This document shows positions 4,239 through 53,608 of a stretch of 64,000 bases of DNA, piece by piece. The stretch's first letter is position 1; the number at the start of each line of letters is the position of its first letter. A program made the position numbers and the translations under genes. The DNA comes from an uncultured virus (IMG/VR IMGVR_UViG_3300044971_002243) (Duplodnaviria; Heunggongvirae; Uroviricota; Caudoviricetes), in the IMG/VR virus record IMGVR_UViG_3300044971_002243. One strand, 5' to 3'. The notes below the pieces were generated by a model. The model was not told where the DNA came from. It saw only the letters and a list, made by a program, of their open reading frames with translations, and searched no databases.

Positions 4239-4631
4239 ATGTCATTTGAAAATCTAACCGAAGATAATATGATGTTGTATGCAGCAAAAGCTTACGATAA
4301 GCCTAACTGTATTATGAGTGAATTCGATGAAGATATGAAGAAATTAAATTATCTTAAACGATTGTTTCATCGATATCATAAAAGAGAAGAAATTCGTGAA
4401 CGGCTGATATTAAATCATATAGTAACACTTAACAATCTGTTTGGTCCAGAAGCGACTAGCAGATTGTTATTTTTTAGTATGAGTGAAAAAGATTACTCTG
4501 CACTTAAAACATTTCTATTATTTCTTAATATTATGCCGAATCGTGTAAAAGGAATAAAAGGCAAAGATATTATTTCATCTAACATTAATATTGATATGAA
4601 AATTGCTGAAGAATTGAGAAAACTAAAATAA
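4239..4631 (+). CDS. conserved T4-like phage hypothetical protein
   Basis: YAAKAYDKPNC...ERLILNHIVTLNNLFG pattern familiar from T4-like phages. Confidence 0.7.
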   Translation: MSFENLTEDNMMLYAAKAYDKPNCIMSEFDEDMKKLNYLKRLFHRYHKREEIRERLILNHIVTLNNLFGPEATSRLLFFSMSEKDYSALKTFLLFLNIMPNRVKGIKGKDIISSNINIDMKIAEELRKLK

Positions 4632-4639
4632 ATACGACT

Positions 4640-4891
4640 ATGAAAAATAACGAATCTAAATTTTGTCCAGCTTGCAACAAAATGGAAAAACGCAACGAGT
4701 GTGGCTTTGGACCAGAATACTGGGACAAAAATGCAAAGAGTGTTAAAGAAGAAGATGCACCAGTAAACGCCGTAGGCGGTGGTGCCGTAGCAGGATTAGG
4801 TGTCGGTCCACAGGGCGAACCTGGCGTGAAGAAACGCAAGGCTGCAACATTCATTTCTTTTATAAAGAGAAAATCAAATGTGGCTTCTTAG
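4640..4891 (+). CDS. hypothetical protein (N-terminal Cys cluster plus EDAPVNAVGGGAVAG module)
   Basis: ORF after a TAAATA motif. Confidence 0.55.
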   Translation: MKNNESKFCPACNKMEKRNECGFGPEYWDKNAKSVKEEDAPVNAVGGGAVAGLGVGPQGEPGVKKRKAATFISFIKRKSNVAS

Positions 4892-22141: not shown

Positions 22142-22225
22142 GCGAGTGTGGTGGAATGGTATACACAGCAGACTTAAAATCTGCCGCCTTCGGGATTGAG
22201 GGTTCAAGTCCCTCCACTCGTACCA
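22142..22225 (+). tRNA. tRNA-Leu(TAA)
   Basis: Cloverleaf with long variable arm and encoded CCA. Confidence 0.95.
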
Positions 22226-22226
22226 C

Positions 22227-22302
22227 GGGCTGTTAGCTTAATGGTCAAAGCAGCGAACTCATAATTCGTTGAGTGCAGGTTCGACTCCTGCACAGCCCAC
22301 CA
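22227..22302 (+). tRNA. tRNA with CAT anticodon (probably Ile2/lysidine type, otherwise Met)
   Basis: Cloverleaf with CTCATAA loop. Separate initiator-like and elongator-like CAT tRNAs occur elsewhere. Confidence 0.85.
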
Positions 22303-22307
22303 AATAC

Positions 22308-22382
22308 CTGGCGTTCGTTCAACGGATAGGACAGGAGTCTTCTAAACTCTTAATGGGGGTTCGATTCCCTCACGCCGGACCA
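22308..22382 (+). tRNA. tRNA-Arg(TCT)
   Basis: Cloverleaf with CTTCTAA loop and CCA. Confidence 0.9.
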
Positions 22383-35654: not shown

Positions 35655-35822
35655 ATGGATCAAATTGATAAAATTATGGCGTTTGAATCAGGTGAACTAG
35701 ACTTTGATGCTACGGTAGAATTGTTTCAAGATTTGATTGATTCGGGTCTGGCGTGGCAATTGCAAGGTTCGTATGGTCGTATGGCAAATTCTCTGATTGA
35801 GAATGGTTATTGTGAGCGATAA
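35655..35822 (+). CDS. conserved phage hypothetical protein
   Basis: GGAGG SD. AWQLQGSYGR motif. Confidence 0.65.
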   Translation: MDQIDKIMAFESGELDFDATVELFQDLIDSGLAWQLQGSYGRMANSLIENGYCER

Positions 35823-35823
35823 A

Positions 35824-36216
35824 ATGAGTGAGCCAAGAATCGTATCAAATCGAATTCGTACTCCTGATGGTACGATTCTTGAATCCATGCATCGGCATGA
35901 TTATGTAACTTATATTGATACAAATGGACTCGAATACATGGTTGATGGCGGCTTGGATTACCTGCGCCGTAATGTACATGATGAAGCACCCGCTGAAGAA
36001 TTATCGGTATATTCCAGTGAATCGCACGATGTAATTCGTGAAGCATTCAAGTGGGGAACACGTGGCAAAGATGGTAGACAGCCTTTGACATATGTACCGC
36101 TGAAAGACTTGACAACAGACCACATTGTGGCTATACTTGAAACTCAAGATCATATTCAGCAATATATCAGAAATATTTTTTTGGATGAGATGATTTTTAG
36201 AACAAAAAATGTATAA
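35824..36216 (+). CDS. conserved phage hypothetical protein
   Basis: SMHRHDY, VDGGLDYLRR and WGTRGKDG motifs. Confidence 0.65.
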   Translation: MSEPRIVSNRIRTPDGTILESMHRHDYVTYIDTNGLEYMVDGGLDYLRRNVHDEAPAEELSVYSSESHDVIREAFKWGTRGKDGRQPLTYVPLKDLTTDHIVAILETQDHIQQYIRNIFLDEMIFRTKNV

Positions 36217-36219
36217 ATA
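36212..36219 (+). promoter_or_regulatory. T4-type late promoter
   Basis: Exact TATAAATA, 5 nt before the leader-peptide ATG. Confidence 0.65.
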
Positions 36220-36224
36220 AGATT

Positions 36225-36320
36225 ATGAACAAACATATACACAATACGAAGCCCTGCCAAGAGTATCGCACATTTAGCGATAATGGATCATGGGCGATTA
36301 CGTTGGGAGTTTGTGTATAG
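36225..36320 (+). CDS. putative attenuator leader peptide containing all 20 amino acids
   Basis: MNKHIHNTKPCQEYRTFSDNGSWAITLGVCV*. Its last codons form the 5' arm of an antiterminator. Confidence 0.75.
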   Translation: MNKHIHNTKPCQEYRTFSDNGSWAITLGVCV

Positions 36321-36382
36321 AAGTTAGTCTGTAGCATAAGATTACACAAACCCCGAAGCCCAAAAAGTTTCGGGGTTTTTTT
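36305..36382 (+). terminator. attenuator: antiterminator (36305-36317 with 36343-36354) overlapping an intrinsic terminator (36348-36382)
   Basis: GTTTGTGTA pairs with TACACAAAC. AAACCCCGAAGC pairs with GTTTCGGGGTTT, ending in a T7 tract. Confidence 0.85.
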
Positions 36383-36384
36383 AT

Positions 36385-36458
36385 CTCGGTGTGGTGAAAT
36401 GGTATCATGCGTGGTTTGGGACCATGCGGCGAAAGTTCGATTCTTTCCACCGAGACCA
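36385..36458 (+). tRNA. tRNA-Pro(TGG)
   Basis: Cloverleaf with CCA. Confidence 0.9.
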
Positions 36459-36493
36459 GAATAATGTGTTGTAAAACAACAACACAAAAATGC

Positions 36494-36522
36494 TTGACAG
36501 TTTGGCGAAATATCTTTATAAT
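36494..36522 (+). promoter_or_regulatory. sigma70-type promoter for the tRNA array
   Basis: TTGACA-17-TATAAT. GTTG-N8-CAAC at 36468-36483. Confidence 0.85.
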
Positions 36523-36543
36523 CGTTTCTGTTGAGTGATTGAA

Positions 36544-36555
36544 GTTCTTTAAAAA
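36544..36555 (+). promoter_or_regulatory. boxA-like antitermination element
   Basis: GTTCTTTAAAAA just downstream of the promoter. Matches rrn boxA GYTCTTTAAnA. Confidence 0.6.
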
Positions 36556-36559
36556 GTGT

Positions 36560-36677
36560 GAATCAAAACAGGTGTGAGCGACCTGTCTCTGAAAAGAGTT
36601 GAGCAAGGGTTTGATGCAGTAATGACTTCGGCATCATGTAATAGTCTGTTCCTTGTTAGTTTGCGAATTTTAGTTTT
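36560..36677 (+). ncRNA. putative structured ncRNA / leader
   Basis: Stems ACAGGT/ACCTGT, CTC/GAG, GCAAGG/CCTTGT and TGATGC/GCATCA. Confidence 0.45.
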
Positions 36678-36679
36678 AT

Positions 36680-36755
36680 GCACCGTTCGTCTATCTGGTT
36701 AGGACAACGCCCTTTCAAGGCGTAAAGACGGGTTCGAATCCCGTACGGTGTACCA
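36680..36755 (+). tRNA. tRNA-Glu(TTC)
   Basis: Cloverleaf with CCA. Confidence 0.95.
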
Positions 36756-36807
36756 AACTTTTAAAAAGGAGAGTCCACATGGACAGTGACAAGAGTAGTA
36801 AGATGAA

Positions 36808-36883
36808 GGGGCTATAGTCAAACGGTTAAGACAGCGGACTTTTAATCCGTCAGGTCAGGGTTCGAATCCCTGTGGCCCCACCA
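36808..36883 (+). tRNA. tRNA-Lys(TTT)
   Basis: Cloverleaf with CCA. Confidence 0.95.
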
Positions 36884-36969
36884 TATAAAAACACATTCAA
36901 ACACATGATGACGCCCGGGGTTATGGAATGTTTTACGACACTCCAAGAATGTGTTTCTATATGGTTTGT

Positions 36970-37043
36970 TGGGATATAGTGTAATGGCAGCACCGCAGAC
37001 TTTGACTCTGTTAGTCTAGGTTCAAATCCTAGTATCCCTGCCA
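36970..37043 (+). tRNA. tRNA-Gln(TTG)
   Basis: Cloverleaf with CCA. Confidence 0.95.
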
Positions 37044-37052
37044 AAATATTAT

Positions 37053-37130
37053 GGCACTTTAGCATAGCTGGCCTAATGCGCTGCCCTGTCACGGCAGAGA
37101 TCACGGGTTCGAATCCCGTAAGTGTCGCCA
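37053..37130 (+). tRNA. tRNA-Asp(GTC)
   Basis: Cloverleaf with CCA. Confidence 0.95.
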
Positions 37131-37139
37131 AAGTTTTAT

Positions 37140-37214
37140 TGCTCGGTAGCACAGCGGTAGTGCAGTTGACTGTTAATCAATTTGTCGTTGGTTCGATCCC
37201 AACCCGAGCAGCCA
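37140..37214 (+). tRNA. tRNA-Asn(GTT)
   Basis: Cloverleaf with CCA. Confidence 0.95.
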
Positions 37215-37216
37215 AG

Positions 37217-37411
37217 TTCCGGTTTCTACTTACCTGAAAGTAGCGGGTGTCACACGTTAGTTAGACCGGTTGGCTAGGCTACCGTTAGCGCAATGCAGAG
37301 CAGAGCACCTAGATATCCGGACACAACCGGTAGCACGATACGCTGAAACAAATGTGGACAGGGTAAAAACTCAGCATAGGGGCGATGACTGGAAATCACG
37401 TAGCCTAAGCA
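37217..37411 (+). ncRNA. putative structured ncRNA (about 195 nt)
   Basis: GC-richer non-coding gap. ACCGGTTG/CAACCGGT, TAGGCTAC/GTAGCCTA and CTACTT/AAGTAG complementarities. Confidence 0.55.
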
Positions 37412-37541
37412 ATATTAGTTTTGCAGTTTGTAAGCCATGGGCTTGATCATGCCTGAGTAACTATGTCTATAAACGGTAAAGAAAGTCCTGCAGGCTACTC
37501 CGTTGAAACATAGCAAATAGTGCAGACTGCAAAACTAATAT
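37412..37541 (+). ncRNA. putative structured ncRNA closed by a 21-bp stem
   Basis: ATATTAGTTTTGCAGTTTGTA pairs with TGCAGACTGCAAAACTAATAT (two G-U). Inner stems CTATGT/ACATAG and ACGG/CCGT. Confidence 0.6.
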
Positions 37542-37626
37542 GGGTTGGAAGCATCAATGGTGATGCAGTGGACTGTAAATCCGCCGTCTTCGGGCACGAC
37601 TGGTTCGATCCCAGTACAACCCACCA
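37542..37626 (+). tRNA. tRNA-Tyr(GTA)
   Basis: Cloverleaf with long variable arm and CCA. Confidence 0.95.
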
Positions 37627-37632
37627 TATTTT

Positions 37633-37707
37633 CGGTCTTTAGTAAAATGGATATTACGGATGGCTACGGACCATCAAGTGGGAGTTCGATTCTCTCAGGA
37701 CCGGCCA
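37633..37707 (+). tRNA. tRNA-Arg(ACG)
   Basis: Cloverleaf with CCA. Confidence 0.9.
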
Positions 37708-37708
37708 A

Positions 37709-37783
37709 GGGGGATTGGTATAGTTGGGAACACATCAGATTTGCATTCTGAAGTAATCGGTTCGAATCCGATATCCTCCACCA
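37709..37783 (+). tRNA. tRNA-Ala(TGC)
   Basis: Cloverleaf with G3:U70 pair and CCA. Confidence 0.95.
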
Positions 37784-37790
37784 TAGTTTT

Positions 37791-37864
37791 GCCCGTTTAG
37801 TTAAATGGTATAACAGTTGATTTGTAATCATCTATTGGCAGTTCGATTCTGTCAACGGGCACCA
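37791..37864 (+). tRNA. tRNA-Thr(TGT)
   Basis: Cloverleaf with CCA. Confidence 0.9.
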
Positions 37865-37882
37865 ATATTATAGTTAAACATT

Positions 37883-38509
37883 ATGATTAAATTTAATGTA
37901 ACTCCTATTTTTCCTAGACCGTTCGCTGAATACACGGTTGATGAAAATATGGATAATTTTTTTGAAGTCGTTAAAAATTTGAAGTATATTTCTCACAAGA
38001 ATACATACTCAAATATTGAAACGACAGAAGATAAACACATATTAGATTCGTTGCCTGAAGTAAAAGAAATCTTTAAAAAGTATTTCTATCATTTCAAAAA
38101 TGAGTTTTTGCATTTTAATGATATAGAGTTTGACATTACCACTTCATGGGCAACTAAAACACAAAAAGGTGGTTTTAGCGCATCACACGCACATTACAAT
38201 AGTTTTTATTCTGGCGTGTATTATTTTGAATCGATGCCCGAAGAGGGTGCTGATGTTATTTTTGAGCGGCCTGAAGAAGTAAGTTCATTTCTTATTCAGC
38301 CCAATGAAATAGTAAATGATGTGACAACGAATTTTTGTTTTTATAAACCTGTTAAAAATACTTTGATATTTTTTCCAAGTTTTCTAAAACATAGAGTAGC
38401 GTTACATGAAATTGATGACATTCGGTATTCGTTGGCATTCAATGTTATTCCTGTTGGAAAATTTGGGTTTCAAGATTCAACTTTGAATGTGCGACTTAAT
38501 AAGAATTAA
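37883..38509 (+). CDS. 2OG-Fe(II) oxygenase superfamily protein (TIGR02466-like)
   Basis: HAH...SGVYY, FPSFLKHRV and RYSLAFN motifs. Confidence 0.8.
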   Translation: MIKFNVTPIFPRPFAEYTVDENMDNFFEVVKNLKYISHKNTYSNIETTEDKHILDSLPEVKEIFKKYFYHFKNEFLHFNDIEFDITTSWATKTQKGGFSASHAHYNSFYSGVYYFESMPEEGADVIFERPEEVSSFLIQPNEIVNDVTTNFCFYKPVKNTLIFFPSFLKHRVALHEIDDIRYSLAFNVIPVGKFGFQDSTLNVRLNKN

Positions 38510-38515
38510 ATTTAT

Positions 38516-38592
38516 AGCGGATTAGGGAAGTGGTCGTTCCCGCCGGTCTCATAAGCCGGAGGTCGCAGGTTCGAATCCTGCATCCGCAACCA
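38516..38592 (+). tRNA. tRNA-Met(CAT), initiator-like
   Basis: Mismatched 1:72 pair and CGCAACCA 3' end. Confidence 0.9.
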
Positions 38593-38614
38593 GTTTTTTA
38601 TTTACGGGTGAAAC

Positions 38615-39082
38615 ATGAAAAAAGAAATTGACATACATGAAGTGGCTGCATTTCTTGACACATGCGGTCCCGATACGAAAGTTTACATTGGTGCAGACAG
38701 TGAACGTTTTCAAATAAATGGTGAATGGTTTGCTGATTATATTCTAGCGGTTGTTGTTCATATCGATGGTCGGCACGGTTGCAAGATTTTTGGTTGTGTT
38801 CAGCGTGAACGTGATTACGAACAAAAGAAAAATCGCCCACGTATGCGTTTGATGACAGAAGTTTATAAAGTTTCGGAATTGTATTTAAAACTTTATGATG
38901 CAATACCACATGATATTGAAGTGCATTTAGATATTAATCCAAGTGAGATGCACGGCAGTTCATGTGTAGTAAACGAAGCAATTGGTTATATCAAAGGTAC
39001 ATGTAATGTTGTACCGCTTGTGAAACCAAAAGCTTTTGCAGCAAGTTATGCGGCAGATAGATTTAAAAGTATTGCTGCTTAA
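38615..39082 (+). CDS. RNase H-like YkuK (DUF458) family protein
   Basis: IGADS, EVHLDIN and ASYAAD motifs. Confidence 0.8.
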   Translation: MKKEIDIHEVAAFLDTCGPDTKVYIGADSERFQINGEWFADYILAVVVHIDGRHGCKIFGCVQRERDYEQKKNRPRMRLMTEVYKVSELYLKLYDAIPHDIEVHLDINPSEMHGSSCVVNEAIGYIKGTCNVVPLVKPKAFAASYAADRFKSIAA

Positions 39083-39086
39083 AAAT

Positions 39087-39160
39087 CTCGGTGTGATGTA
39101 ATGGTAGCATCGCAGTCTCCAAAACTGTTCGTTGCGGTTCAAGTCCGTACACCGAGGCCA
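39087..39160 (+). tRNA. tRNA-Trp(CCA)
   Basis: Cloverleaf with CCA. Confidence 0.9.
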
Positions 39161-39162
39161 GT

Positions 39163-39238
39163 GGTGTCTATAGTGTAGTGGTCTGCACGAATGTCTGTGG
39201 AACATTCAGTATGAGTTCAATCCTCATTAGACACCCCA
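39163..39238 (+). tRNA. tRNA-His(GTG)
   Basis: Cloverleaf with G-1:C73 pair. Confidence 0.9.
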
Positions 39239-39240
39239 AT

Positions 39241-39316
39241 GGTGCTTTAGCTGATGTGGTCATAGCGGCGGTTTGAAGAGCCGTTGAAGTTGGTTCGATT
39301 CCAACAGGCACCACCA
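39241..39316 (+). tRNA. tRNA-Phe(GAA)
   Basis: Cloverleaf with CCA. Confidence 0.9.
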
Positions 39317-39317
39317 T

Positions 39318-39391
39318 TGTCCTGTAGTTAAATGGTATAACTGTCGATTGATAATCGACCATTACAAGTTCAATTCTTGTCGGGACAACCA
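39318..39391 (+). tRNA. tRNA-Ile(GAT)
   Basis: Cloverleaf with CCA. Confidence 0.9.
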
Positions 39392-39392
39392 A

Positions 39393-39467
39393 GGTAATGT
39401 AGCATAACGGTAGTGCGCCTCCTTCATACGGAGTCAAGTGTAAGTTCGATTCTTACCATTACCACCA
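39393..39467 (+). tRNA. tRNA-Met(CAT), elongator-like
   Basis: Cloverleaf with TTCATAC loop and CCA. Confidence 0.85.
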
Positions 39468-39469
39468 AT

Positions 39470-39546
39470 GCCCCTTTGACGGAACTGGTATACGTGTATG
39501 TCTTAGGAACATAATTTTGAGGGTTCGAATCCCTTGGGGGGCACCA
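39470..39546 (+). tRNA. tRNA-Leu(TAG), short variable loop
   Basis: Cloverleaf with CTTAGGA loop and CCA. Confidence 0.85.
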
Positions 39547-39554
39547 AATTAAAC

Positions 39555-39629
39555 GCATCGTTAGTTCAGCGGTAGAATCCCTGCCTTACAAGCAGGTTGT
39601 CGTTGGTTCGAATCCAGCACGATGCACCA
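39555..39629 (+). tRNA. tRNA-Val(TAC)
   Basis: Cloverleaf with CCA. Confidence 0.95.
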
Positions 39630-39635
39630 AACAAC

Positions 39636-39713
39636 GGTAAGGTGGCTGAGTGGTCCAAAGCAACAGTCTGCAAAACTGTAAAACCATCGGTTCAAATCCG
39701 ATCCTTACCTCCA
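39636..39713 (+). tRNA. tRNA-Cys(GCA)
   Basis: Cloverleaf with U73 and CCA. Confidence 0.9.
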
Positions 39714-39717
39714 GAAT

Positions 39718-39807
39718 GGAAACGTGGCCGAGTGGTTTAAGGCTCTAGTCTTGAAAACTAGCGATTCAGAAATGGATCCGTGAGTTCGAATCTCACCGTT
39801 TCCGCCA
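39718..39807 (+). tRNA. tRNA-Ser(TGA)
   Basis: Cloverleaf with long variable arm and CCA. Confidence 0.95.
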
Positions 39808-39812
39808 AACAT

Positions 39813-39899
39813 GGAGAGTTGGCAGAGTGGTAATGCACCGGATTGCTAATCCGCCGTTTCGAAAGAGGCGCACAGGTTCGAATCCTGTACTCTCCGCCA
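39813..39899 (+). tRNA. tRNA-Ser(GCT)
   Basis: Cloverleaf with long variable arm and CCA. Confidence 0.95.
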
Positions 39900-39963
39900 T
39901 TTTTGGTAATGAAAATCGAAAATATTGACAAAAATCACTTTTTCAGTCATAATCACTACTATC

Positions 39964-40125
39964 ATGAATACGAAAAAATCAAAAATTTCTTCAAAACCAC
40001 GAAATTTTGTCGCTAAGGATCTCTTTTCGGCAAAATATCGCATGAAAGTTGAGAAATCACCCGCAGTATTTTATTCACGTGCAGTCGAAAAACAAAATTT
40101 TAGGAAAAATTATGACGGATTCTAG
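39964..40125 (+). CDS. small basic protein, weakly ArfA-like
   Basis: RNFVAKDLFSAKYRMKVEKS...YSR. Preceded by TTGACA-17-CATAAT (39925-39953). Confidence 0.5.
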   Translation: MNTKKSKISSKPRNFVAKDLFSAKYRMKVEKSPAVFYSRAVEKQNFRKNYDGF

Positions 40126-40528
40126 TAAAAACGAAGAAAATGATGATATTACTGAAAATTATGACGGTTTTTACTTTATTCCAACAGAGACTAAAGATGA
40201 ATCAAGCTACAAATTAGCATTTTTCACGTTTAAAGATGAAATGGCAAATGCAAAACCGATAGAAACGTCTGAAATGGGCGATACATTTCATATTGCATTC
40301 TTCAAACCCGATGAAAATGACCTTCCTGTGTTCGATGATTCGTTTGAAGCTATTTTGACTGACCCAATCGTGTATATTAACAATTTAGTTGGCACTGGTA
40401 TGTCTGGCTGCATACTCAGAAAGACTGAAAAATCGGAAGTTTGGTTTCAAGAGTATTTGGATTATATAACTGGCGGCGAATTTGAAACAAAAGTTCGTGA
40501 AATTGCAAAAAATATAGCGGAGAACTAA
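40112..40528 (+). CDS. acidic hypothetical protein
   Basis: AGGA SD. Confidence 0.6.
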   Translation: MTDSSKNEENDDITENYDGFYFIPTETKDESSYKLAFFTFKDEMANAKPIETSEMGDTFHIAFFKPDENDLPVFDDSFEAILTDPIVYINNLVGTGMSGCILRKTEKSEVWFQEYLDYITGGEFETKVREIAKNIAEN

Positions 40529-40529
40529 T

Positions 40530-40826
40530 ATGAATGTATTTTCTGGTGATAGTGATGATGCAAAAGCAGGTCGTGATTGGCTAAAAAGTTTGTTAGAAGA
40601 AAACACGGTAGAAGTTGTGTTTACTAAAAAAGATGGCACTGAACGTGTGATGAATTGTACATTGAAAGAAGATGTTCTGCCAACAGTACAAAAAGAAATT
40701 GAAGAAGATTCATTCACAAAGACAAAAGCAAAAGATGCACTTGCTGTTTGGGATGTTGACGCAAGTGGTTGGCGTTCTTTTCGTTGGGACTCAATCAAGT
40801 CTGTTAATTTTTCATTGGGAGCATAA
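40530..40826 (+). CDS. WYL_2 / Sm-like SH3-fold protein
   Basis: VFTKKDGTERVM..TL and VWDV..GWRSFR motifs. Confidence 0.75.
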   Translation: MNVFSGDSDDAKAGRDWLKSLLEENTVEVVFTKKDGTERVMNCTLKEDVLPTVQKEIEEDSFTKTKAKDALAVWDVDASGWRSFRWDSIKSVNFSLGA

Positions 40827-40828
40827 TT

Positions 40829-41119
40829 ATGCCTAAGTATATCGTAGAACAGTTGTCTTGTTTTAGAAATGTTCATGTTGTTGAAGCAGAAACCGAACAA
40901 GAAGCAATTGCAATCTCAGAACAAGCCGATGATAACTGGCAAGAATGGCTTGGTTGTCTGAAAGTTGACGTAAATCATTTTTCCGATGAACGTATTGCAT
41001 ATTTTAAAGAAAAAGATTATTTTTGGAATGGCGTATCATACAAAGATGCTGATGGCTATATCGGATATATACATCCGAGCGGTGAAAAAGTAGAACGTAA
41101 AGAAATTAAGATTAAATGA
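40829..41119 (+). CDS. hypothetical protein
   Basis: GGAG SD. Confidence 0.6.
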   Translation: MPKYIVEQLSCFRNVHVVEAETEQEAIAISEQADDNWQEWLGCLKVDVNHFSDERIAYFKEKDYFWNGVSYKDADGYIGYIHPSGEKVERKEIKIK

Positions 41120-41125
41120 AGCAAT

Positions 41126-41199
41126 GCGGGATTAGTTTAATGGTAAAACGTGAGCCTTCCAAGCTCCTGTTATCAGTTCGATTCTGATATCCCGCTCCA
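41126..41199 (+). tRNA. tRNA-Gly(TCC)
   Basis: Cloverleaf with U73 and CCA. Confidence 0.95.
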
Positions 41200-53098: not shown

Positions 53099-53254
53099 TT
53101 ATGGAAATTAGTGAAAAAGAATACGATGAAAAATTGGATGAATATCTGAGAGAACAAGGACCAAATCTAGGTGAAACATTTTTTGGCGCATGGGGTTGGT
53201 ATGCAACAAAACGAAATGAGTTTAATGCGATATTGAAAGAGGAAGGAATTGTTG

Positions 53255-53540
53255 TAATCCCTTCAAAGTGAAGGCATTCTGGACGAGGGTTCGATTCCCT
53301 CCATCTCCACCAGAAACATTCTTGTCCATGGAGTTGGGAACGGACAGATAAACCGTGAGAGTGTTTCTCATGGGGATGACCTGGTTTCGACAGGGTGAGA
53401 TAGCAGAGAAGGCAACACGAAAGGCGACGGACGTAATCCGAGCAAATAATATAACCGCAAATGACGAGTTATACGCTCTAGCAGCCTAAATTGCTAGATG
53501 AGGTTTCGCCGACTGTCCTTATTATCCAATCAGTCGGCAT
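53255..53540 (+). ncRNA. ssrA: circularly permuted (two-piece) tmRNA, tag ANDELYALAA
   Basis: T-arm and CATCTCCACCA end at 53312, before the GGGGATGAC 5' end at 53372. G3:U pair. Tag ORF at 53457-53489. Outer ends approximate. Confidence 0.9.
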
Positions 53541-53608
53541 CAATTATGGGTTTGGTGGCATCACCCGAACAAGAGTTCAAAAAACCACCACTTACACGGA
53601 GTTATATT

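Follow-up and report, generated by a model that had tools for sequence, protein, structure and literature searches.

A leader element ahead of a phage tRNA array

We analysed a 64,000-nucleotide (nt) stretch of an uncultured freshwater T4-like myophage, a lake phage recorded in IMG/VR as IMGVR_UViG_3300044971_002243. This whole stretch is called the window, and coordinates without a genome name are positions in it. Directly ahead of a tRNA array, the window carries a compact leader element that combines a late-promoter-like motif, a short open reading frame (ORF), alternative RNA pairings and an intrinsic terminator (Table 1). The motif TATAAATA overlaps the TAA stop codon (36214-36216) of an upstream 139-amino-acid (aa) ORF and is followed by the spacer AGATT and then by an ATG at 36225, ahead of which a purine-rich Shine-Dalgarno (SD) sequence is absent. 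The leader ORF translates as MNKHIHNTKPCQEYRTFSDNGSWAITLGVCV. Near its end, GGGAGTTTGTGTA at 36305-36317 is complementary to TACACAAACCCC at 36343-36354, which overlaps the 5' arm of the terminator.

An original prediction, made from the sequence of the window, had described five features here: an exact late-promoter motif 5 nt before an ATG without an SD, a 31-codon ORF containing every amino acid, 28 distinct codons within it, pairing of the ORF end with a strand that overlaps the terminator, and tRNA-Pro at the head of an array covering all 20 amino acids. All five are present in the sequence where it had placed them, as is the sigma-70 promoter that it had noted at 36494. Translation gives the 20 kinds, with AAT, ACG and GGA as the codons that occur twice each. 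ARAGORN alone finds 19 isotypes in the array; Rfam adds a tRNA at 37542-37623 (+; 34.2 bits) whose anticodon loop reads GTA, that is Tyr, so that all 20 isotypes are covered.

Table 1. Parts of the leader element and of the tRNA array behind it, in window coordinates.
Feature	Coordinates	Strand	Basis or detail
T4-type (gp55) late-promoter-like -10 element TATAAATA	36212..36219	+	sequence
Leader ORF, 31 codons plus TAG (36318-36320), all 20 amino acids, 28 distinct codons, no SD	36225..36320	+	
Segment 1 (TATACACAATAC, codons 4-8), pairs with segment 2 in the full-length fold	36236..36247	+	minimum free energy (MFE) fold
Central stem-loop within the ORF	36251..36295	+	hairpin TATCGC-ACATTTA-GCGATA (36264-36282) inside GCCC.../...GGGC
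Segment 2 (GGGAGTTTGTGTATAG, last 4 codons plus stop), partner segment 1 or segment 3	36305..36320	+	
Segment 3 (TTACACAAACCCCGAA), partner segment 2 (antiterminator) or segment 4 (terminator 5' arm)	36342..36357	+	
Intrinsic terminator, 12-bp stem (36348-36378), 7-nt loop, T-run to 36382	36348..36382	+	
tRNA-Pro (TGG), first gene past the terminator, without a promoter of its own	36385..36458	+	
Consensus sigma-70-type promoter (TTGACA, 17 nt, TATAAT)	36494..36522	+	12/12 consensus positions matched
tRNA array, 20 tRNAs (ARAGORN) plus tRNA-Tyr 37542-37623	36680..41199	+	

Rfam covariance models detected no family over 36212-36382 at E values up to 1, and megablast and blastn of 35700-36700 against cultured phages returned no DNA match. 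Searches by tblastn with the leader peptides of the window and of the relative G003 (below) against cultured phages gave chance matches only (E 3-8). A small tRNA cluster elsewhere in the window, at 22142-22382, lacks such a leader.

Composition of the leader ORF

The probability that 31 codons include all 20 amino acids is 0.0020 under uniform usage and 3.7e-4 under the amino-acid usage of this phage. Among real 31-aa stretches of long ORFs, 20 kinds occur in 2 of 13,400 in the window and in 6 of 46,314 in the complete relative G002. The leader ORF is alone in having 20 kinds among the 393 small ORFs (25-40 aa, six frames) of the window; an all-20 ORF is expected by chance about once per 10 windows. 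The single case is thus not significant at the scale of the whole scan, and it is the comparative data that decide.

Codon usage is similarly spread out. The 28 distinct codons of the leader compare with a mean of 21.0 in real 31-codon stretches, among which 28 or more are found in 26 of 46,714 and 30 or more in none; given the amino-acid sequence of the leader, the probability of 28 is 0.088. No residue occurs more than three times, and there is no enrichment for the codons of one amino acid of a controlled pathway, the pattern being the opposite.

The same layout at a different locus of a relative

A second leader with this layout is found in G003, a complete 170-kb relative whose copy of the 139-aa gene does not lie beside tRNAs. 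Its array of 24 tRNAs, which covers 20 isotypes with tRNA-Ser first, sits at a different locus behind different genes and is directly preceded by TATAAATA, 5 nt, an ATG and a 32-codon ORF, MNKILSTISKQHTPMTNWSEGYCARSFDGGFV. This ORF again contains all 20 kinds of amino acid, though no more than 7-11 of its residues can be aligned with the peptide of the window. At the end of the ORF, GGGGGTTTTGTATAG pairs with CTATACAAAACCC, which lies at the base of a terminator, and the first tRNA begins a few bases past the T-run. The chance of all 20 kinds in G003 is 3.3e-4 if the two leaders are independent, and 1.8e-4 to 1.2e-3 depending on the choice of residues that are counted as inherited. Its codons are 29 of 32 distinct (P=0.028).

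The prediction had set in advance, as a test, that related phages should keep the diversity of the leader despite sequence divergence, and G003 bears this out, with a nearly unalignable leader at another site and again 20 kinds. G003 is the strongest comparative case, and we regard it as decisive. Physical linkage of the element to tRNA arrays is shown in two genomic contexts.

Searches for more leaders of the G003 type returned only G003 itself, and records G010-G014 contained no additional tRNA arrays. A scan for TATAAATA plus 5 nt plus ATGAACAAA gave at least 117 stretches, from which 80 loci were read and 23 short ORFs listed; among these 23, high diversity is found only in the known element, in G003 and in L142, where the ORF precedes a protein gene and not a tRNA. 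L142 lies on an unrelated GC-rich IMG/VR phage contig of 6 kb (minus strand of the locus) and shows TTGACA, 17 nt, TATAAAT and an ATG 5 nt on; its 31-codon ORF has 19 amino-acid kinds and no Leu, with a strong terminator next and the protein gene after it.

A conserved frame with a free peptide

PHROG matches in the window include gp32, the gp59 loader, the baseplate hub and ribonucleotide reductase. By the gp32-like protein, the closest cultured relatives are Pelagibacter phage HTVC008M, Methylophilales phage Melnitz and cyanomyoviruses (54-59% identity). Through the neighbouring 139-aa gene and pattern scans of IMG/VR and JGI metagenomes we gathered 41 further copies of the element, all from uncultured freshwater T4-like phages, with 30 distinct sequences. 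The 30-sequence alignment A1 leaves out L040, whose 5' flank is too short, and L047, whose contig ends inside the ORF. The scan patterns demanded most of the core YRTFSDNGSW, and the invariance of that core is therefore partly built into the sample.

The leader frame is open in all 30 distinct copies, as the prediction had expected of homologous regions; the other two frames are open in 3 and in none. Indels within the ORF are solely of 3 nt (five rows) or 6 nt (one row). Variable columns are distributed over codon positions 1, 2 and 3 as 13, 16 and 19, and differing codons are nonsynonymous in 157 of 207 cases (76%), compared with 626 of 1329 (47%) in the adjacent 139-aa gene of the same 7 genomes. 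A share of 76% points to near-neutral change in the variable leader codons. A frame and length that are kept while the sequence is free are the signature of a leader or upstream ORF. These patterns indicate that the element is not a chance ORF, that its frame is probably read and that the peptide sequence itself would not matter. The central core departs from this pattern, being almost without variation even at synonymous sites, and the single change within its stem, C to T, yields a G.U pair. At the protein level, YRTFSDNGSWA is invariant in 27 of 27 main-family peptides.

How far the all-20 content extends can be read from the 27 distinct peptides, with 20 kinds in 16, 19 in five, 18 in five and 17 in one. 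The expectation that homologues would share the amino-acid diversity thus held for the majority, with the rest close behind at 17-19 kinds; completeness did not prove universal, Leu being the residue most often lost. The positions of Leu, Pro, Gln and Glu differ between clades. When substitutions were placed at random at the observed variable sites, all 20 kinds survived in 3-6% of trials from the window clade to the L032 or L049 clade, and in 14% over the distance that separates these last two. From these comparisons, all-20 retention appears to exceed drift, and the content appears to be under selection. Codon diversity across the family ranges from 22 to 31 distinct codons, and L030 and L039 reach 31 of 31. 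Given the amino-acid sequence, the excess of distinct codons averages +2.8, with P of 0.001-0.1 in most rows and of about 0.5-0.9 in L033, L052, L053 and L065; the rows are related, so these P values are not independent tests.

Alternative pairings of the leader RNA

The leader RNA is more stably folded than its shuffles, with z of -4.20 in the window and -3.86 in G003. In the window, the full-length MFE structure consists of the segment 1:2 helix and the terminator, and the same holds for most representatives. The nascent RNA, cut just before the 3' arm of the terminator, adopts instead the 2:3 fold in 15 of 15 representatives. This fold sequesters AAACCCC, the base of the terminator stem beside the U-run, and is mutually exclusive with the terminator. 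Segment 2 consists of the last four codons and the stop, and by this geometry the position of a ribosome could govern the antiterminator strand.

Calculated duplex energies are -15.5 to -24.7 kcal/mol for 2:3, -13.8 to -17.8 kcal/mol for the terminator arms and -5.5 to -14.9 kcal/mol for 1:2. Shuffling of the spacer alone, 300 times per row, reached the 2:3 energy at most 5 times in 12 of the 30 rows (those of the L032-type clade, L033, L048, L050 and L065), 17-23 times in the window clade and in about 10-30% of shuffles in the L029/L034 clade.

The terminator cells are all paired in 30 of 30 rows, with compensatory changes at columns 165-181 (GC 25, CG 3, AU 2) and 166-180 (AU 27, GC 3). The 1:2 pair of columns 46-123 is AU in 26, GC in 3 and GU in 1, and the 2:3 pair of columns 123-153 is UA in 16, UG in 4, CG in 3 and something else in 7. 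These seven rows form one clade, where segment 3 pairs in a register shifted by a 1-nt bulge. In L051, L056 and L057, segment 2 has a T-to-C change, segment 1 a matching A-to-G change and segment 3 a matching G, which is what a strand with two alternative mates predicts. Segment 3 exists in four distinct versions, all of which have kept their complementarity to segment 2. Pairing of the ORF end with the 5' arm of the terminator, which the prediction had expected relatives to keep, is present in every lineage. The central stem-loop is a possible pause hairpin.

A putative late promoter and a proposed leaderless start

The T4 late motif TATAAATA spans -13 to -6. A spacing of 5 nt would then place +1 at the A of the ATG and give a leaderless mRNA. 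Of 30 aligned relatives, 28 have the motif, in the form TATAAATA or (C/G/T)ATATATA, at this distance from the ATG. T4 gp55 homologs are encoded in G002, G003 and G004 (41-45% identity, E 1e-22 to 1e-24); within the 64-kb window gp55 was not found. In the complete genome G002, TATAAATA is depleted (6 occurrences, 12 expected), and all six lie on the coding strand 5-45 nt before an ATG. Its tail-tube gene (phrog_45, E 2e-31; 130802-131351, L081 10802-11351) starts 5 nt past TATAAATA without an SD, directly behind a terminator. By this placement and layout, leaderless late mRNAs seem to be in use in the lineage. The proposal of a late promoter with a leaderless mRNA is thus supported by the gp55 homologs and by the tail-tube arrangement in relatives; the exact motif did not hold across the family, most relatives having TATATATA.

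On the + strand of the window, neither ATAAATA (8, 12.5 expected) nor TATAAATA (1, 2.6 expected) is enriched. ORFs of 83, 78 and 144 aa begin exactly 5 nt after ATAAATA in the window (4628-4888, +) and in G002 (10676 and 119808), which suggests that starts of the leaderless type are habitual in this lineage.

What the element could control

tRNA-Pro starts 3-10 nt past the T-run in the window and in most relatives, and it lacks its own promoter. Because the consensus sigma-70 promoter of the window stands behind tRNA-Pro, only this gene strictly depends on read-through there. In the L029/L034-type clade, the sigma-70 promoter stands directly after the terminator, and tRNA-Pro is placed past this promoter or at a later point of the array.

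Two studies yielded RNA-library contigs (X2 record 8, X3 record 13) that extend from the interior of the ORF across the terminator to 36392, and the X2 contig continues for 43 nt into the tRNA-Pro of a relative. At a depth of 2.9-3.5 and with DNA carry-over possible, they give a weak hint of read-through; they have no cover at, for example, 36410-36443 and upstream of 36172 and are uninformative there.

The leader content was also compared with the tRNA gene content, and no tracking was found for Leu or Phe. A GGY codon at position 21 is restricted to phages that have tRNA-Gly(GCC), 4 of 5 of which carry it, and the two phages without this tRNA have GGA or no Gly, a sample too small for a conclusion.

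Several other features of the array region were recorded. Between the sigma-70 promoter and tRNA-Glu (36523-36679, +), the blocks GTGAGCGA...TCTGAAAAGAGTTGAGCAAGGGTTTGATGC...CTTCGGCATC... are kept in L028, L029, L037 and L038 and absent from L030 and L031; this interval folds no better than shuffles (z -0.75), and an RNA-library contig covers 36564-36662. The roughly 325 nt between tRNA-Asn and tRNA-Tyr (37215-37541, +) hold no convincing ORF and no Rfam match, and relatives have a gap of similar size after tRNA-Asn. Two protein genes lie inside the array, one for a 2-oxoglutarate (2OG)-Fe(II) oxygenase (phrog_81; 37883-38506, +) and one for a phrog_11311 protein (38615-39079, +), the latter at the site where relatives have tRNA-Gly(GCC). 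About 12 kb downstream of the array, at 53220-53580 (+), the phage encodes a transfer-messenger RNA (tmRNA) with the tag ANDELYALAA, and the tmRNA of G002 (L078 1078-1450) has the tag ANDDYYALAA. The phage thus carries a ribosome-rescue RNA beside its full tRNA set.

A model for attenuation by decoding speed, and its alternatives

Taken together, the comparisons indicate that a real, conserved, translated-looking leader with a competing antiterminator heads phage tRNA arrays. We favour the view that it is a ribosome-mediated, translation-coupled transcription attenuator, whose all-amino-acid leader would report overall decoding speed, and we put the probability of this at roughly 0.55. Transcription from the gp55-type late promoter would start at the A of the ATG, and a ribosome would translate the 31 leader codons. 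A ribosome that keeps pace with the polymerase as far as the last codons or the stop would cover segment 2 (36305-36320); segment 3 would then pair with segment 4, the terminator would form, and transcription would end before tRNA-Pro. If the ribosome were delayed at a slow codon, segment 2 would be free as segment 3 emerges, 2:3 pairing would tie up AAACCCC, and the polymerase would read on into tRNA-Pro and the array. With no ribosome on the leader, the outcome could be read-through via 2:3, or termination via 1:2 as in trp. Early in infection, host sigma-70 would drive the array; late, transcription from the gp55 promoter would reach it only via the attenuator. The start site, translation, the direction of the switch and regulated read-through are inferred.

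We further propose, with a confidence somewhat short of even, that phages whose tRNA set is complete have a 'test peptide' in which all 20 amino acids occur and the number of different codons comes close to the number of positions. Any decoding shortfall, whether from starvation, a mismatch with host codon usage or host anticodon nucleases, would delay the ribosome and activate late transcription of the array. Under a wider rule, of which this would be a single case, phage tRNA arrays would have at their head leader ORFs that match the isotypes of the array.

A number of observations weigh against attenuation by an all-amino-acid leader. With regard to the peptide, Leu and Val of the window leader are confined to codons 27-31, and a ribosome stalled there would keep segment 2 covered, a caveat already raised in the original prediction. 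Moreover, 11 of the 27 peptides lack one to three amino acids, Leu being absent from all 11 and Gly, Lys, Glu, Ala or Pro from some; completeness is therefore not essential, a common but losable property. Synonymous switching within two-codon boxes samples no different tRNA. The near-invariance of YRTFSDNGSWA at both the protein and the DNA level is not itself explained by the model. Leader content does not track the gain and loss of individual tRNA genes: G006 has tRNA-Leu(TAG) and a leader without a Leu codon, and G005 and G007 use CTA with no tRNA-Leu(TAG) in the array.

With regard to the RNA and its transcription, the covariation amounts to essentially one evolutionary event, the 1:2 helix is weak and in most rows does not outperform its shuffles, and the RNAalifold consensus shows the central hairpin, a wobble-rich hairpin and the terminator only, omitting both 1:2 and 2:3. 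Most relatives have TATATATA in place of TATAAATA (ATATATA in 19 of 30), and both motifs are missing from L052 and L053. A consensus sigma-70 promoter, conserved in relatives, belongs to the array itself and can drive the rest of it independently, and where this promoter stands right behind the terminator, early tRNA expression needs no read-through.

Part of this evidence would fit a leader-ORF attenuator in which the all-20 content is incidental and the element senses the position of the ribosome over the few codons of segment 1, or mere coupling of transcription and translation, and not the supply of every amino acid. In strict trp-type geometry only codons 1 to about 11 mask segment 1; the incomplete peptides and the lack of fine tracking of tRNA gene content point the same way, and RNA structure could account for some of the kept codons, such as the CCC/CCA for Pro that is always paired with the invariant UGGGC. 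Against it stand the 20 kinds found again in the nearly unalignable G003 leader (P 1.8e-4 to 1.2e-3), a retention across clades above the neutral expectation and a codon diversity above that expected from the amino-acid sequence. We consider this explanation unlikely, though it deserves to be taken seriously.

We find it improbable that the element is an independent small late unit of promoter, small ORF or small RNA (sRNA) and terminator, in which the terminator insulates the array from transcription arriving from upstream and read-through is not regulated. An insulator would not need an ORF end whose complementarity to the terminator arm is conserved and compensated, and a promoterless tRNA-Pro stands 3-10 nt past the T-run in the window and most relatives. 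The element also accompanies the head of the array in two different gene neighbourhoods, and conservation of the frame speaks against a pure sRNA. What such a unit would explain is the strength of the terminator (12 bp and a T-run), the array's own consensus promoter, right after the terminator in one clade, and a core conserved at the DNA level like an RNA gene.

The invariance of YRTFSDNGSWA in all 27 main-family peptides could also reflect a nascent-chain arrest or ligand-sensing peptide of the TnaC, SpeFL or SecM kind, with a fixed stall setting the RNA fold; by geometry, a halt near codons 23-25 would place the ribosome so that segment 2 is only just uncovered. Since the search patterns required most of the core, the sample is biased, the core is equally invariant at synonymous sites and forms a hairpin, indicating a constraint at the RNA level, and the G003 leader has no such core, all of which makes a fixed stall very unlikely. 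A functional small protein to which the RNA pairings are irrelevant would account for the conserved frame and invariant core, yet is scarcely credible given a near-neutral nonsynonymous share (76%, 47% in the neighbouring gene), an almost unalignable G003 peptide and no family or homolog beyond chance.

Relation to known attenuators

Why phages carry tRNAs, and how these are controlled, is an open question; ideas include compensation of codon usage, translation of late genes and escape from host defences that cleave tRNA. If attenuation by an all-amino-acid leader is correct, the element would feed back directly on the tRNA pool, coupling tRNA transcription to how fast a ribosome reads one copy of every amino acid, and would widen trp/his attenuation to cover every amino acid instead of one, and tRNA genes in addition to enzyme genes. 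Being self-contained and about 170 nt long, it could act as a reporter of global decoding capacity. Our literature search, in which subscription journals were largely outside reach, found no paper on leader-peptide control of tRNA genes.

By analogy, the logic of the element is that of leader-peptide attenuation of the trp/his type. In enterobacterial leaders, the position of a ribosome on the leader ORF selects between alternative helices. Like trpL, hisL, leuL, thrL and pheL, the element has a short leader ORF, an intrinsic terminator and an antiterminator, one strand of which also belongs to the terminator's 5' arm; as in trp-type leaders, segment 2 can pair with 1 or 3, and the ribosome position would decide which helix forms. 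In contrast to those five, it has no Rfam match, and its leader is as diverse as possible, where theirs are enriched for one amino acid. The genes that it would control encode tRNAs and not biosynthetic enzymes, and the element is phage-borne, behind a late-type promoter and apparently leaderless. In addition, 2:3 is stronger than 1:2, unlike in enterobacterial leaders, and the state without a ribosome may therefore be read-through.

Among published systems, two are closest in design, the multivalent ilv leaders and a mycobacterial type described below. The leaders of ilvGMEDA and ilvBN are examples of multivalent attenuation, in which one leader reports several amino acids. They present the three branched-chain amino acids in runs, whereas the phage leader presents all 20, mostly once or twice each. 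The resemblance to T4 gp55 late promoters lies in the exact TATAAATA of the window clade and G003 and in the same motif ahead of late genes in G002; the difference lies in TATATATA, found at the leader site of most relatives.

The closest parallel for a leaderless arrangement comes from mycobacteria, where leaderless polycysteine short ORFs are described as cysteine-responsive attenuators (10.1101/834739). As described there, these are likewise leaderless short ORFs that form the first cistron and attenuate the genes behind them (10.1101/834739). The polycysteine ORFs of that account are Cys-rich, respond to one amino acid, are cellular and have protein genes as their targets, and the phage leader differs from them in each of these respects (10.1101/834739).

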